A stretch of DNA of 64,000 bases from a virus (taxonomy: Duplodnaviria > Caudoviricetes), in IMG/VR virus record IMGVR_UViG_3300021167_000128, positions 16,637 through 80,636 of that record. One strand, given 5' to 3'. The notes beneath the pieces were generated by a model that saw nothing but the letters and a program-made list of their open reading frames with translations, searched no databases and had not been told where the DNA came from. The position numbers and the translations under genes are program-made. Shown piece by piece: positions 15,801-46,379 of this stretch (position 1 is the first letter of the stretch; the number at the start of each line of letters is the position of its first letter).

Positions 15801-18800
15801 TACATAGGCTCTACCTTGTTCTGTAGCTTCAAATAGACGCTTCTTTGCTAATTCAAAGTCAGTACCACTCAACTGCCCACTTTGATGTAATGCTTGCAAC
15901 CTACGAAGATCTTCATAATACTGCGAACTGAGTTTGCTAGACTGACCAAGCAGCTTATTAGCTAACTTTTGTCCTTCTGCAATATCAGACTGAGCAATAG
16001 CTTCTTCTGCCATAACAGCAATAGTTTTTCTCTTCTCTTCACTATATTTAGCAAAGTTAGGATTAGACATTATATCAAGAACTTTTTGCTGTGCTTTGCT
16101 ATAGTTATTTTGATATGAAATAGCATCTGCTGTAATACCATTGATAGCTTCAATATCTTTAGCGTATGCTTTCATTAGACGATTAGCTTCTTTTTCAGAA
16201 TCAGTTTTACCTTTCTTCTGTTTATTAGCTGCATCATATTGCTCACCACGCATCTTCTTGAATAACTCTTGCTCTTTTTCAGTCATTCCATGGTACGTCT
16301 TTAAAACATCTTCAAGTTCCGCTTTTATGTAAGCTGACCTGCTACCTGCACCTTTCATCTTATTTTTAGGTTTATCTTCATACTTATCAATTTCATCTAG
16401 AACTTTACGTCTAGCTTTCTCTTGACTTGCATTATCTGCTGCAATTTTTGCTCTAACTTTGGCATTCTCTTGCTCTGCTTTAGACTCCTTACTACCGAGA
16501 CTAAGCATCTTATTGATAAATTTCTCTCTATCTTGCTCACGTTGAATATTGTGTTTATCAATCTCTGAGTCAATTTTTAGAACTTGATCCCATTCCCCAG
16601 AAGCAATAGCAGCACCTTTGGCAGCTAACCCACCTAAACTAGATCCAAGTCCAGTTATAGTGTAATAAACTTCATATGCAGCTATACCAATAGTCTGTAG
16701 TGCTGTTTTGAGAGGATCTAAGAATGTACTTGACTGTGCAAATTCTTGAATACTTTGCCAAACATCAGAAATTACACTATTAATATCTTTCCAAAGAATT
16801 TCAATAGGAGACATATCAGAAAGCATATTAGCTGATTCTTGCTTTAATGAAGCAGCCATAATCTTTTGTGCTTCTGTTACTGCTTCTGTTTCCTTACCAA
16901 TACGAACAAGTTGTTCTACTCTTTCCATTTCAGATTGAGTTACAAGACCTGTTGCTACTCGATATGAAGATAATCCTTTTATTGGATCATCATATACTTT
17001 GGTCAGTAAGGCGGTAATATCTGCAACTGATCTACCTCCATTAATTGCAAGATCTCTAGCAGCAGCAGCAACTTCAGATAAAGCATCTTTAGTTACTTTT
17101 CCTGTCTTTGCTAATTCCGTAAAAATACCAAGCATTCTTAATGAAGTTGTACCAGAAACTACCATAGACTCAGATGTAGCAATTATCTCATCTTTAGTAA
17201 AGCCCCACATTGCAGAGTTCTGTTGTAATGCAGCATTAAGACCAGTTTGAGCTTTCATTAACTGATATGCAGCTACTGCAGCAGAAGAATAAGCCACAAC
17301 AAGTCCAGATGCAACCAACCCATTGATAGTTGTAATTATTTTAGCTGCACCATCAAAGGACTTGACCCATAGCGAAGTTTCGGACCTATTATCTACTAGA
17401 TATTGTCGTAACCTCTCAAGAATTGGTCCAGTTAAAGTAATATCACTTGCAAACTTCGTAATAACAGAACCTGCACTTTGAATAGATCCAATGAAGAACG
17501 ATCCTACTGCTTGACCAACTAAAGCAAAAGAACTTACAATTTGACCTAAAGCAGTCTTCATTACACCATTCATTTGTTGAGCATCTGCACCAACCTGCTG
17601 GATAACACCTCTGATTTGATCACCTTGTTGGAAGAAGACTAATAAAGGGTTCATACCGCCAGCAAGTGAAACACCCACGTCACCTAACTGAACTGACATA
17701 GCACGTGCAAGGTGTTGCATATCTCTAGCTTTATCTTTAGAACTTACTTCACGTAACTTTTCTTCTAATCCTTTAAATTTAATTGCAGCGGCATCCGCAC
17801 TTAGACCAGACTTATCAAGAGCAGTTTTAATTTTAACTAATTCATCTGTAGAAGCACGATTCATAGCTATATTAGAACTATCAAGAGAAGCCGCTAGTCT
17901 TAATTCAGTTTCTCTTAGGAAATCATTTGCAGCAGCAGCTTCTCTACTTGCTCTAGCAGCTTGCTCTTTAGCATTAGCTTCTTTGACAAAAGAATTAATA
18001 ACGTCTTGAGGAACACCCTTAACTTCCATACCTGCAGCTACGTTAGCAGTAGAACGACTGGCTCCAGTATTCAGGAATTTAGTCATTGATACTTCTTTAT
18101 TAATGCGTGCAGTAATTCCTGCTAGATGACGTTCTGCTTCTGATGCTTCTTGTTCAAGAGCTGAATAGAAATTACGATAAGCTTGCATATCTTTGTCGTA
18201 GTTTTGCTTATCTTGTTCTCGTTTCCAAGTCTTAATTTGAATTTCTTTATTGAAAGACTCTTTAATTACCGTTTGTCTTTCATTCTGTATTCTTGCCTCT
18301 TCTTGATATTGCTCACGAAGAATCTTCATGTCATTTTGATATTGTTCTTCAAGACCAGAAGATTTCATGCTTCTGCGATTAGCAGCTTGTTTGTCTGCTT
18401 CTTGTGAAGCTTTAGCAATAGCATTAGCTCTCTCAATTTCAGCCTTAGCATGAGACTTTGCAGCAGCTTCAGAATCCTTCGCAGCTTGCTTTAGCATATT
18501 TAAAGAGTTGGCTTCAGCTACAGTCGCTAATTCTAGTTTAGATATTCTTTGTTGCAGTTGTTCTGTGGATTCCCCTGCTTGTTTAGAAGCAATAGTTACA
18601 CCTTGAATATCTCGGGTTAATCCTACGATCTGATCTCTAGTTAAATTAAAACCTCTAGCTGAGTATTCATTTACCTTAACAAGCTCTTGAACCTCTTTAC
18701 GCATCTTCTCAAGACTACCCGCTGTCTTATCGAAGGGTGACACTTGAGAGATAGAATTAATTTGAGTAATTGAGTTAGCTAGAACATTAAATTCACCAGA

Positions 18801-42736: not shown

Positions 42737-44305
42737 ATGGATTATAAACTGTATAACAATGATTGCTTAGATAAACTAAAAGAACTAGAAGATAACTCTG
42801 TAGATTCTATCATTACAGATCCTCCTTATGGTCTTAACTTCATGAATAAGAAATGGGACTATAGTATTCCTAGTGTCGAGATTTGGAAGGAATGCTTACG
42901 TGTTTTAAAGCCGGGAGGTTACTTGCTGTCCTTTGCAGGTACTAGGACTCAGCATAGAATGGCTTGTAATATTGAAGATGTTGGATTTGAGATTAAAGAT
43001 ATGATTGCTTGGGTATATGCTTGCTACTCAGAAGATACGGAGTGTCTTACTAATAATGGGTGGAAGAAATACAATGAAATTCTAGGAGATGACATGATTT
43101 TGCAATGGGACCATGAGTCTAATAATTTGTCATGGTATAAGCCAAAGGAAATCCTTGCATATGATGCCCCTGATGAAATGGTTCATTTTGAGAATCGTCA
43201 TACAGATCAACTTCTAACAAAGAATCATAGATGTTATATCAACTACAAGAAACACCAAAGGAATAAATTCAATGAAGGCTATACAGTAGTTGAAGCTGGT
43301 GATATTAAGAAACATTGGATTAAGAACTTCCCTCTTGCCGGCAACTTAGATCAAGGTTCAACTGTGAATAACCCTTATTTACTTGGTTGGTGGATGACTG
43401 ACGCTTGGGTACACGGTGGCGGAAAGGCGTGTATGTTCTCCCAAGTTAAACCTAAAACTCTTGCCAAGTTACGAGATGCTTTGTCTTTAGCTGATTGCAA
43501 GTTTTCAGAGTACATCAAAGAACGCAGGTGTTTCAACGAACTACACGGAGATGAGCATTCATTCTATGTAACAGGTAATCTAGCAGAACAGTTTCTAAGT
43601 AGTTATCCAATTCGTAAGTTCTCTTATGAAATTATGGCTTGGGATTTTAACTCTCGGCAGCTATTCCTTGAAGGGCTACTTGACGGCGATGGTTCTCGTC
43701 CTATGGATCAGCACAGCGAAACATTCTGGTCTTTAGACCATGAACGCTTGGATGTTGTGCAGGCACTGTGCCTATCACTGAACATTAGAAGTTACGTTGA
43801 TTACAAGAAAGGTTGTGTGTATTTGAATCGTAAGACCAATACAACACAACTTCAATGTAAGCATACTAATAAAGTTGAGAGTTATAGCGGCAAGGTTGTT
43901 TGGTGCCTACAAACGGAAACAGGGGCATTTGTGGTTCGTAGAAATGGTAAGGCTTTTATTTCAGGGAACAGTGGTATGCCAAAACACCGTAGTTGCTTAA
44001 AGCCAGCATTAGAACCTATTACACTTGCTAGGAAACCAGCTAAGAAGGCTACATTGTTGAACATTGAGGAGTGTAGAGTAGAACGAATACAAGGTGATCG
44101 TACAGATTATGGCTTGAAGAATGCTGTACGAAGTCAAGGGAATTGCTTCGGTGCTCCGACTTCCTCTGCTGATTTTGATAGTACTAAAGGTAGGTATCCG
44201 TCTAATGTAATCTTGTCGTATGATGAAGATGAATATCAATTAGCTGACTCTGTTACTGAAGAACAATTAGAAGAACTGAACAGATGGTTTTATGAGAACT
44301 CCTAA
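42737..44305 (+). CDS. N4/N6 DNA methyltransferase N-terminal half (DPPY), containing an intein
   Basis: VDSIITDPPYG, FAGTRT.HR, WVYA^SGMPK after intein removal, LKPALEPITLARKP, GRYPSNVI. Confidence 0.88.
   Translation: MDYKLYNNDCLDKLKELEDNSVDSIITDPPYGLNFMNKKWDYSIPSVEIWKECLRVLKPGGYLLSFAGTRTQHRMACNIEDVGFEIKDMIAWVYACYSEDTECLTNNGWKKYNEILGDDMILQWDHESNNLSWYKPKEILAYDAPDEMVHFENRHTDQLLTKNHRCYINYKKHQRNKFNEGYTVVEAGDIKKHWIKNFPLAGNLDQGSTVNNPYLLGWWMTDAWVHGGGKACMFSQVKPKTLAKLRDALSLADCKFSEYIKERRCFNELHGDEHSFYVTGNLAEQFLSSYPIRKFSYEIMAWDFNSRQLFLEGLLDGDGSRPMDQHSETFWSLDHERLDVVQALCLSLNIRSYVDYKKGCVYLNRKTNTTQLQCKHTNKVESYSGKVVWCLQTETGAFVVRRNGKAFISGNSGMPKHRSCLKPALEPITLARKPAKKATLLNIEECRVERIQGDRTDYGLKNAVRSQGNCFGAPTSSADFDSTKGRYPSNVILSYDEDEYQLADSVTEEQLEELNRWFYENS
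43022..43969 (+). mobile_element. intein (316 aa) with LAGLIDADG endonuclease
   Basis: Starts CYSEDTECLT; block B LLTKNH; endonuclease motifs LLGWWMTDA and FLEGLLDGDG; ends VWCLQTETGAFVVRRNGKAFISGN followed by +1 Ser. Confidence 0.92.
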
Positions 44306-44441
44306 TTGTGGTTGTATAACATGCAGGGGAGATGCACTAATTCATTCTAATATACTCTGGGACTTGAATAATGGAATAACACTTTGCATGAAATGTCACT
44401 ATGAAGAACATGGGAGAAACTTTAATGAAGATAGAGAGTAA
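44292..44441 (+). pseudogene. internally deleted HNH endonuclease remnant (49 aa)
   Basis: MRTPNCGCITC...ILWDLNNGITLCMKCHYEEHG; overlaps both methyltransferase halves. Confidence 0.7.
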
Positions 44442-44994
44442 TCGGTATGAACGACTTCCAAATCACTTGAAATCGTTGTTTGTAAAATGTAAAAACACAG
44501 GAAAAGAAGAAGTAGTAAGTCTATTTCCTGATAGTTTAGGTGCAGGAGGTTCTTTACCTAGAGTTAAAATTACAGGTTATGGTGATGGTATTGGAACAGG
44601 CAAATCTGAATATCTAAGAGGTGATAGAATTCCTTTTGATTCAGGTACAGGTTCAGCAGCTAGATTCTTTTATTGTGCTAAAGCTAATCGAAAAGATAGA
44701 GAAGAAGGCAACTTGCATCCTACAGTAAAACCTACAGAATTAATGAAGTATCTGATTAAGCTAGTTACTCCTAAAGACGGTATTGTTCTTGATCCATTTA
44801 TGGGTAGTGGTAGTACAGGTAAAGCTGCTAAGATTCTAGGTTATTCTTTTATTGGTATTGAGCGAGAAGAGGAATATTTTAAGATTGCAGAACAACGTAT
44901 TACAAGCGCGGTTCGTCAGAGCGATCCCGAAGGGTTCGTGATCTTTCAGAGCCAAACAAACCTTACAAGTGCTGTAGCTGAAGTACAAGAATAA
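44425..44994 (+). CDS. N4/N6 DNA methyltransferase C-terminal half (SAM-binding)
   Basis: EEVVSLFP, SAARFFYCAKA, HPTVKP, VLDPFMGSGSTG, FIGIERE; ATG 44425 after GGGAGA. Confidence 0.88.
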   Translation: MKIESNRYERLPNHLKSLFVKCKNTGKEEVVSLFPDSLGAGGSLPRVKITGYGDGIGTGKSEYLRGDRIPFDSGTGSAARFFYCAKANRKDREEGNLHPTVKPTELMKYLIKLVTPKDGIVLDPFMGSGSTGKAAKILGYSFIGIEREEEYFKIAEQRITSAVRQSDPEGFVIFQSQTNLTSAVAEVQE

Positions 44995-45330: not shown

Positions 45331-45370
45331 GGTTGTGTTTGACTAAAACGGTTAAACACAACCTTTTATT
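45331..45370 (+). terminator. intrinsic terminator
   Basis: GGTTGTGTTTGAC/GTTAAACACAACC stem then TTTTATT. Confidence 0.6.
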
Positions 45371-45392
45371 TAACCAAACTAGGAGAAAGACT

Positions 45393-46379
45393 TTGGGGAT
45401 TAACGTATTATCTTTATTTGATGGTATTTCTTGTGGAAGAATTGCACTAGAACGTATAGGTATTCAAGTAAATAATTACTTTGCTAGTGAAATTGATAAA
45501 CATGCTATTAAGGTATCTCAGAATAATTGGAAAGATGTTACTGCAATTGGTAATGTAACTAAAATTTCGTTTTCTAATGGAGTTCTTTATACTGAAGTTG
45601 GTCAATTTCAAGTTGGAAGGATTGATCTTGTAATTGCGGGTAGTCCATGCCAGGGCTTTTCAATGGCAGGGAAACAGCTAGCTTTTGATGATGAAAGGAG
45701 CAAATTATACTTTGTATTTGAAAGAATTCTTAAAGAAATTCAAGCAGAGAATCCTGGCGTAAAATTCTTACTTGAAAATGTAAAGATGAAACAAGAGTAT
45801 AAGGATATTATTTCTGAACATTTGGGTGTGACACCTGTCGCTATTAATTCAAACCTTGTTTCAGCACAGAATAGGTATCGTTTATATTGGGCTAACTTCC
45901 CTATTACTGTTCCAGAAGATAAAGGAATTCTGCTAAAAGATATTCTTCAAAAAGAAGTACATGAAAAATATTATATTAAGGGTGGAAGACTTCAGTGGTT
46001 AAAGAACTTTGGTGAAGTAAAGGAAAAAGATGGCTATATCGCATTTAATCCAATTAAAGCAAAGTGCCTAACAGTCCGAGCTGAACCAAGCTGGAATTGT
46101 ACATACATTCTACAATGGCCGCATGGTAGTAATATTGGAGGTTATCGTGCTAAAGATGGGAAGACTCCTGCACTAACTACATCCTCTTGGGAAAGTAATA
46201 ATTTACTCCTAAATGAAGGATTAGTTCGTAAACTTACACCAGAGGAATGCGAGGAACTACAAACAGTTCCAATAGGTTATACATCTAGTGTTTCTGATAG
46301 TCAAAGATATAAGATGCTTGGAAATGGATGGACAGTCAATATTATTTGTGCTATATTTGAAGGGTTGAAGTTTAACTAA
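45393..46379 (+). CDS. C5-cytosine DNA methyltransferase
   Basis: LSLFDG, AGSPCQGFS, FLLENV, AQNR.R, KMLGNGW; TTG start after AGGAGA. Confidence 0.9.
   Translation: MGINVLSLFDGISCGRIALERIGIQVNNYFASEIDKHAIKVSQNNWKDVTAIGNVTKISFSNGVLYTEVGQFQVGRIDLVIAGSPCQGFSMAGKQLAFDDERSKLYFVFERILKEIQAENPGVKFLLENVKMKQEYKDIISEHLGVTPVAINSNLVSAQNRYRLYWANFPITVPEDKGILLKDILQKEVHEKYYIKGGRLQWLKNFGEVKEKDGYIAFNPIKAKCLTVRAEPSWNCTYILQWPHGSNIGGYRAKDGKTPALTTSSWESNNLLLNEGLVRKLTPEECEELQTVPIGYTSSVSDSQRYKMLGNGWTVNIICAIFEGLKFN

Follow-up and report, generated by a model that had tools for sequence, protein, structure and literature searches.

How might a DNA methyltransferase gene stay in use after two unrelated selfish elements have entered it, one of which breaks it into separately translated pieces? 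The question is raised by a locus in the DNA of an uncultured phage (Caudoviricetes), a 64,000-nt stretch (positions 16,637 to 80,636 of IMG/VR virus record IMGVR_UViG_3300021167_000128) that is called the window below; the source record is complete, with 80,636 bp and direct terminal repeats. On the plus strand, which carries all features described here, three open reading frames (ORFs) lie in three different frames: a 522-aa N-terminal half of the methyltransferase (N-half, 42737..44305), which contains an intein and ends in an additional tail, a 49-aa relic of an HNH endonuclease gene (44292..44441), and a 189-aa C-terminal half (C-half, 44425..44994), which opens with an additional leader. 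The whole layout described by an initial annotation of the locus is present, and the explanation that probably accounts for it is that the methyltransferase gene of this 80.6-kb phage was invaded by two unrelated selfish elements and that its halves assemble with the aid of a tail-leader clasp.

The identity of the broken gene is indicated by both of its halves. Each exceeds the curated cut-off of the Pfam profile PF01555 (26.7 bits), and their coverage is complementary, the N-half matching profile positions 1-84 (38.7 bits) and the C-half positions 150-220 (89 bits). The first extein segment (N-extein 1, aa 1-95, 42737..43021) contains the catalytic motif IV, DPPY (aa 28-31, nt 42818-42829), shares 95% aa identity with the close relative L090 and was modelled by AlphaFold2 with a predicted local distance difference test (pLDDT) score of mostly 74-95. 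The second segment (N-extein 2, aa 412-492, 43970..44212) ends in GRYPSNVI. The C-half, which joins the leader to a target-recognition region and an S-adenosylmethionine (SAM)-binding part, carries HPTVKP at aa 98-103 and DPFMGSGS at aa 123-130, and its Foldseek matches are M.BceJIV, M1.HpyAVI and CcrM. The beta-class order of motif IV followed by the SAM-binding motif I (FxGxG) is kept across both ORFs. The split gene is predicted to encode one beta-class N6/N4 DNA methyltransferase (PF01555), and no other PF01555 gene was found in the 80.6-kb phage genome.

The first invader is a class-1 LAGLIDADG intein of 316 aa (43022..43969), which occupies N-half residues 96-411, from Cys96 to Gly410-Asn411, between WVYA and SGMPK, as the initial annotation had proposed. 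It is absent from L090 and P0003, and the uninterrupted sequence WVYSQGMPK is found at the same codon junction in alleles about 90% identical (P0003, P0012 and L090). The residues of a class-1 intein are all there, namely Cys96, a TxxH block B (TKNH, aa 161-164), the C-terminal Asn411 and Ser412 at position +1, together with LAGLIDADG-type motifs at aa 215-224 and 311-320 and a Pfam match to LAGLIDADG_3. The AlphaFold2 model has a pLDDT >90, and its best Foldseek match is PI-SceI 1ef0 (E 5e-13), with TliVMA, PhoVMA, PI-PfuI and I-DmoI also found. The penultimate His is replaced by Gly410, a Gly that recurs in every relative inspected. The initial annotation had called this Gly-Asn end non-canonical; the residues are as it described, but they are not unusual within this intein family. 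Phage inteins often have no penultimate His, and because an intein with a Gly-Asn end splices fully (Kelley et al. 2016, PMC5050341), the penultimate His is not strictly defining.

A search with the intein alone retrieved 292 related clusters, all within PF01555 proteins, and those inspected end in G-N-S/T. Inteins of the actinophage N6_N4 methylases (DNMT) are likewise of the LAGLIDADG type and occupy the same insertion point, AW-x-Y-G/A ^ SG-F/M-PK (PMC5050341; Gosselin et al. 2023, PMC9957025), and those of ShiLan gp65 and StAnnes gp70 have the same Gly-Asn end before Ser. The tblastn identity to the actinophage methylase inteins is 34-38% over extein and intein. The window intein thus appears to be a new member of a known family, for which the Gly-Asn end would be normal. 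Unlike the actinophage copies, it sits in a low-GC (36%) uncultured phage, and this copy together with the 292 metagenome clusters suggests that the intein has spread far beyond actinophages.

The second invader interrupts the gene after N-extein 2. Past GRYPSNVILSYD the N-half frame continues for 26 residues to a TAA at 44303-44305, the extension and stop that the initial annotation had read, and the stop is overlapped by the 49-aa HNH ORF. Alignment to the full-length copies in L002, L084, L003 and L086 shows that this ORF retains approximately the first 8-11 and the last ~35 residues of a 195-210-aa NUMOD3/HNH protein. The ESHH catalytic pair, the first CxxC pair and the NUMOD3 region are missing, so that the intact HNH (beta-beta-alpha-metal) motif is found in the full-length relatives but not in the window copy. 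The full-length copies match HNH, HNH_2 and NUMOD3 in Pfam; the window ORF has no Pfam match. The alignment bears out the earlier description of the ORF as a relic: it is best read as an internally deleted copy of a NUMOD3/HNH endonuclease and not as an active member of the family. No full copy of the family was found elsewhere in the 80.6-kb phage genome.

The other end of the relic overlaps the start of the C-half, its stop lying 14 nt beyond the C-half ATG. This ATG (44425) is 8 nt past a GGGAG Shine-Dalgarno sequence (44412..44416), confirming that the second ORF has a ribosome-binding site of its own. The GGGAG lies inside the CAT-GGG-AGA (HGR) codons of the relic, and the EEHGR codons are invariant across all aligned HNH copies. 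The in-frame internal deletion spared exactly the overlap with the N-half stop and the start signals of the C-half, which suggests that a translational coupling chain was kept by selection.

In its complete form, the cassette is found in contigs L002, L003, L084, L086 and P0037 as a tailed N-half, a 195-210-aa ORF and a leader-bearing C-half, the three overlapping ORFs occupying the entire insert. The initial annotation had put forward, as a check, a search for the same junction peptides around a full-length HNH gene, and this arrangement was found in >50 metagenome loci. An assembly error, which the same annotation had named as a possible cause of the layout, was rejected because the same relic recurs in the independent metagenome contig L085 and the full form is present in >50 independent loci.

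The cassette is always inserted between GR(W/Y)P(A/S)N-x-I and GS(D/E)EV, at the same codon position in relatives, and no flanking direct repeats or target-site duplication were found around it at the DNA level. Its presence is polymorphic: it is carried by the window and by L085 and is absent in L087-L090, at 90-93% identity. Among alleles this close, L090 and P0003 are free of both inserts, and L087 and P0002 have just the intein; the two invasions are thus real and independent events, in agreement with the initial annotation. A mosaic pattern adjoins the cassette on its 5′ side, within N-extein 2. Compared to L087, the window has 31 mismatches in a tract of ~205 nt (43996-44200), against 5 in the preceding ~535 nt and 8 in the 385 nt past the cassette. 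This corresponds to 85% identity in the tract and 98-99% in its flanks, and the synonymous divergence (dS) is 0.82 in the tract vs 0.03-0.24 in the flanks. The tract looks like a co-conversion tract, and the cassette probably reached an intein-bearing allele by gene conversion from a diverged donor.

What the cassette brings to the two halves is a pair of peptides. The N-half gains a C-terminal tail of 30 aa (L493-S522, 44213..44302; LSYDEDEYQLADSVTEEQLEELNRWFYENS) with a net charge of -9, which is not in intact alleles, and the C-half gains an N-terminal leader of 24 aa (M1-N24, 44425..44496; MKIESNRYERLPNHLKSLFVKCKN) with a net charge of +4, which is conserved in 54 loci. The initial annotation had noticed the additional leader and estimated it at ~21 aa; comparison with intact relatives gives 24 aa. 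A search with the C-half retrieved intact 319-aa relatives at ~92% identity and also many diverged proteins of ~165 aa, all of which start with M-K-I-x(4)-Y-x-x-L-P-x-x-L-K-x-L-F. A scan by HNH alignment yielded 59 metagenome loci and 2 more from a genome scan. From the HNH-scan loci, the earlier cassette loci and the window, 44 tails (33 distinct) and 54 leaders were parsed, all at the same site and of fixed length as parsed: 38 codons from GRWPAN to the stop for the tail (consensus GRWPANLILSYPEDEYxLRxDVTxEQxxxLxxWxxENx) and 30 codons for the leader (consensus MxIxExTYxxMPxxLQALFxKLPNPGSDEV), in which P12 and N24 are invariant.

Conservation of these peptides follows the methyltransferase frames wherever a second frame does not interfere. 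In tail codons 9-33, identity at codon positions 1/2/3 is 0.56-0.71 / 0.64-0.80 / 0.38-0.45, and the corresponding values for leader codons 11-24 are 0.59 / 0.77 / 0.39; in the five tail codons that overlap the HNH start, the pattern moves to the HNH frame. Because the non-overlapping codons are most variable at position 3, in cassette loci that span 33% to 64% GC, the tail and leader are under purifying selection as peptides. Their charges tend in opposite directions across loci, with a mean of -4 for tails and +1.8 for leaders. AlphaFold2 modelled the leader as a short strand and two helices (pLDDT 81-88 for residues 1-20) and the tail as a helix at aa 508-520 with moderate confidence.

The tail is also widespread. 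A tail profile matched 277 cluster representatives among 1.84 billion, 211 of them at E<=1e-10, and in all but four of 150 listed clusters the tail forms the C-terminal end of the protein. Among 50,697 GenBank phage records, tblastn with the full HNH protein found distant HNH-domain matches only and no close relative, and the region itself had no megablast match to GenBank phages. Klebsiella phage KP13-27, retrieved by tblastn with the leader-bearing C-half, was rejected as a leader carrier, as it encodes an ordinary intact methyltransferase with neither tail nor leader.

A natural fusion shows what becomes of the two peptides when the endonuclease disappears. In P0387, the HNH gene is almost wholly lost and the stop is lost as well, leaving one 448-aa methyltransferase that is identical in contigs of three samples. 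Its junction reads ...RWLDANA-TTRFMGGT-MKIDEKTF..., in which eight residues join the tail to the leader. Because the end of the tail is here linked in frame to the start of the leader, the two peptides tolerate tethering, and the fusion fits a hairpin-like clasp at the break.

Together, these observations can be arranged into the following scheme. The intein at WVY(A/G)^SG(M/F)PK would be translated along with the N-terminal part and then splice itself out. The second invader would be a site-specific, free-standing NUMOD3/HNH homing-endonuclease cassette, whose insertion turned the gene into three overlapping frames, giving the N-half a stop and an acidic tail of 30 aa and the C-half a ribosome-binding site, a start codon and a leader of 24 aa. 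In the window, the endonuclease has lost ~155 internal residues, including the catalytic histidines, so that the element is no longer self-mobile, and the in-frame relic is retained only where it overlaps the stop of the N-half and the start signals of the C-half. Non-covalent assembly of the spliced N-half with the C-half would then yield an active methyltransferase, and a small clasp formed by tail and leader at the break point may aid this assembly. The role as assembly tags that the initial annotation had suggested for the added peptides fits the comparative data.

The concept of such tags has already been proven for NrdA of phage Aeh1 (PMC3045599), which the initial annotation had cited only as a split gene that still works. 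In the Aeh1 arrangement nrdA-a/mobE/nrdA-b, the tails that mobE brought along are indispensable for activity, and more such cases were predicted (Crona et al. 2010, PMC3045599). The same work also weighs against a clasp of the kind proposed here, as the Aeh1 tails are unneeded for the pairing of the halves and needed for the higher-order dimer (PMC3045599); a clasp between the halves may hence be wrong in detail. In addition, the pLDDT of the modelled tail is only ~63-67, the adjoining part of the extein is poorly modelled, and the overlap with the HNH frame explains part of the conservation (tail codons 34-38 and leader codons 1-10).

A different account is that the methyltransferase is dead, the split gene is decaying, and the tail and leader are kept for the endonuclease cassette, as expression signals or as homing flanks. 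Decay does occur around this locus: the HNH gene has already decayed in the window, and the frameshift in the intein of the close relative L087-L089 shows that genes of this group can be lost. Loss might moreover be tolerated since the phage has other methyltransferase genes, such as that of a C5 enzyme, and the codons that overlap the HNH gene are constrained by the HNH frame. However, both ORFs are open and all methyltransferase motifs are present. Against close relatives, the ratio of nonsynonymous to synonymous substitution rates (dN/dS) is 0.057 for N-extein 1 (vs L090), 0.027 for N-extein 2, 0-0.03 for the intein and 0.09-0.18 for the C-half (0.09 vs L090), values that argue against long-term drift of the gene, although they average both lineages and are compatible with a recent inactivation in this phage. 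The pattern in the non-overlapping codons, which points to selection on the tail and leader as protein in the methyltransferase frames, is not what a dead enzyme predicts either. Finally, tail and leader outlast the loss of the HNH gene, both in the window and in P0387, and >200 lineages hold both halves open. A dead enzyme is consequently improbable, though it deserves to be taken seriously.

It is far less probable that a single chain results, the insert being spliced out with a group I intron or bypassed by the ribosome in the manner of T4 gene 60. Phage HNH genes are often housed in group I introns, and the T4 mobA cassette reportedly includes a 50-nt bypass element. At the split, however, no group I intron ribozyme core was found by Rfam, folding or consensus structure: Rfam gave no intron in 43900-44800 (E-value mode) or in six cassette loci (gathering threshold), the predicted fold of the 301-nt insert is no more stable than that of shuffled sequence (z = +1.48), and no conserved structure surrounds the HNH start in 25 loci. 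A hairpin at the start of the relic (inverted repeat 44251-44273 / 44299-44321) was considered as a mask of the HNH start, as in mobE, and was rejected, being unconserved in 25 cassettes. The overlapping ORFs of the full cassettes leave no room for a ribozyme, and the halves lie in different frames, each with its own conserved stop, Shine-Dalgarno sequence and start.

The slimmest chance falls to the tail and leader being the ends of a degenerate split intein, which would ligate the halves by protein trans-splicing; the leader N24 is invariant, and inteins that contain an HNH domain exist. Crona et al. considered such an origin for the Aeh1 tails (PMC3045599), but here Leu is the first residue of the tail, which lacks a conserved Cys or Ser nucleophile. 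N24 is followed by Pro in 78% of leaders and by Thr in the window, with no conserved Cys/Ser/Thr at this position, 30 + 24 aa are far too short for a Hint fold, and in the alignment N24-P-G-S takes the place of H-D-G-S, the native sequence of intact enzymes.

The arrangement read here as two halves with a clasp resembles that of Aeh1 in several respects. In both phages, a free-standing HNH gene divides the gene of an enzyme into two halves that are translated separately (Friedrich 2007; PMC3045599), the downstream half starts before the endonuclease gene has ended, neither RNA nor protein splicing is apparent at the break, and each half gains with the insertion a short terminal peptide, the two being oppositely charged. 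The host gene is a DNA methyltransferase here and a ribonucleotide reductase in Aeh1, and the HNH family differs in combining NUMOD3 with a C-terminal HNH. The polarity of the charges is reversed, with an acidic tail and a basic leader in the window. Aeh1 stands as one isolated example, whereas here a common tail and leader are conserved at one site across >200 lineages; unlike in Aeh1, the endonuclease has been lost from the window copy, and the function of the tails, proven in Aeh1, is deduced here by comparison.

Two other systems are close in part. In T4, the mobile HNH cassette of mobA is said to split an enzyme gene into gene 39 and gene 60, with additional sequence that offsets the damage; both halves reportedly have tail-like extensions, as here, and T4 reportedly relies in addition on ribosomal bypassing of 50 nt. 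At the window split, no signal for a bypass or hop was found. The ShiLan domain, or 'hidden HNH' (Arsenault et al. 2025, PMC11855218), is likewise an out-of-frame HNH gene found within methyltransferases of this family, and it shows neither an intron nor an intein signature. Its HNH family and its site (after ...ARKP) differ from those of the window cassette, and its host frame stays open, the enzyme being read straight through; in the window, by contrast, a stop and a new start interrupt the host frame, and the products are two polypeptides that have a dedicated tail and leader. Literature searches returned no description of an N6/N4 methyltransferase that is naturally split by an HNH gene and has tails.

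Several relatives carry further variations of the same gene. The closest intein-only allele, L087-L089 (three samples), has a 2-nt deletion in the intein (L087:544; window 43814-43815) that breaks the frame, and the methyltransferase of L087-L089 is probably dead. A second mosaic boundary lies inside the intein, the 5′ part of which (43279-43459) has 22 mismatches to L087 in 180 nt and the next ~535 nt only 5. P0141 (444 aa) is an N-terminal part that stops eight residues past the intein with an unrelated charged tail, RDIYKYDIKEKIEEELRKQGEEDIKWK, and may mark yet another break point in the family. P0370 is a tail-bearing N-half with two inteins, and P0288 and L121 (L121:403-2511) are tail-bearing N-halves with an intein at the same site; because these three combine inteins with the tail, double invasion by intein and cassette is not unique to the window phage. 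Long in-frame insertions are found in the tail-bearing N-halves L100 (1114-2511), P0243, P0251 and P0284, that of L100 being at the ARKP site of the ShiLan domain. The methyltransferase family thus appears to be a hotspot for several mobile elements at once.

Actinophage methylases are broken at a second site. In ShiLan gp65-gp67 (L091, L093), the break lies at a position that reads ERPS^ANGVAHPTVKP in the intact StAnnes gp70; gp65 ends in LRLRADLTPEQVDHVVARLREAGVEID at its stop, a 29-aa ORF (MRDFNVDEIPADIRPYFEEVRGASVAHPT) follows, and, past a 7-nt insert, the remainder of the methylase continues in a different frame. In Kari (L161, gp57-gp60) and Fishburne, a 265-aa endonuclease gene lies between the methylase pieces on the opposite strand. 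This layout is common to at least 68 phage records, and the tail and leader there resemble those of the cassette studied here. In a term search of the 2023 actinophage paper (PMC9957025), no mention of this second break was found.

Other observations concern the surroundings of the gene. In L002, a betaproteobacterial transfer-messenger RNA gene (L002:4943-5253) lies ~2.5 kb downstream of the full cassette, and this copy of the cassette is probably in a prophage integrated at ssrA. In the window, a C5 cytosine methyltransferase gene (PF00145, E 3e-39; 45333-46379) is located ~340 nt downstream of the split gene, after an 84-aa ORF, and the phage is predicted to encode several methyltransferases. 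Scans for promoters and terminators inside the gene gave nothing above chance.

Whether the clasp belongs to this site or to the cassette itself is touched on by L085. This contig contains a 541-bp piece with 92% identity to the window (L085:792-1332, window 44253-44793), made up of the last 17 tail codons, the HNH relic, the leader and ~120 C-half codons, which stands in frame in an unrelated context. Upstream, a 280-aa protein with an HEAFH motif ends in LTEEQLEELNRWFYENS at its stop; downstream, the methyltransferase sequence ends before DPF and continues as a different sequence, which resembles a lytic transglycosylase by eye only, Pfam giving no such match. Either L085 is a genuine mosaic, in which the tail has been reused on another protein, or its assembly is chimeric. 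In addition, the second break in mycobacteriophage methylases has a similar tail (LR-x-D-L-TPEQ) and leader (M-R-...-IP-x-x-I-R-x-x-F). The L085 mosaic, in which the tail ends an unrelated protein, the P0387 fusion and the likeness of the mycobacteriophage break hint that the tail and leader could be a co-evolved heterodimerizing clasp of the HNH cassette itself, perhaps usable at other sites or in other genes, an extension that is put forward tentatively and is rather doubtful at present.

Crona et al. (2010) showed that peptides borne by a homing endonuclease rescue a split gene in one phage and proposed that this may be general and hard to detect (PMC3045599). The same solution would be seen here as a conserved, site-specific cassette in >200 lineages, with clear sequence signatures. 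Three natural stages can be compared: a full endonuclease, a relic with the gene still split, as in the window, and an endonuclease lost with the halves fused again, as in P0387. The idea can be tested through a simple read-out, DNA methylation, and the peptides are a possible source of short natural pairs for split-protein engineering. For annotation, a consequence is that a methyltransferase of this kind is reported as two or three seemingly unrelated ORFs and that the small relic ORF is easy to overlook. If the tail and leader are indeed a clasp that belongs to the cassette itself, homing endonucleases would have, alongside introns and inteins, a third and widespread means of residing inside a coding gene that stays alive.

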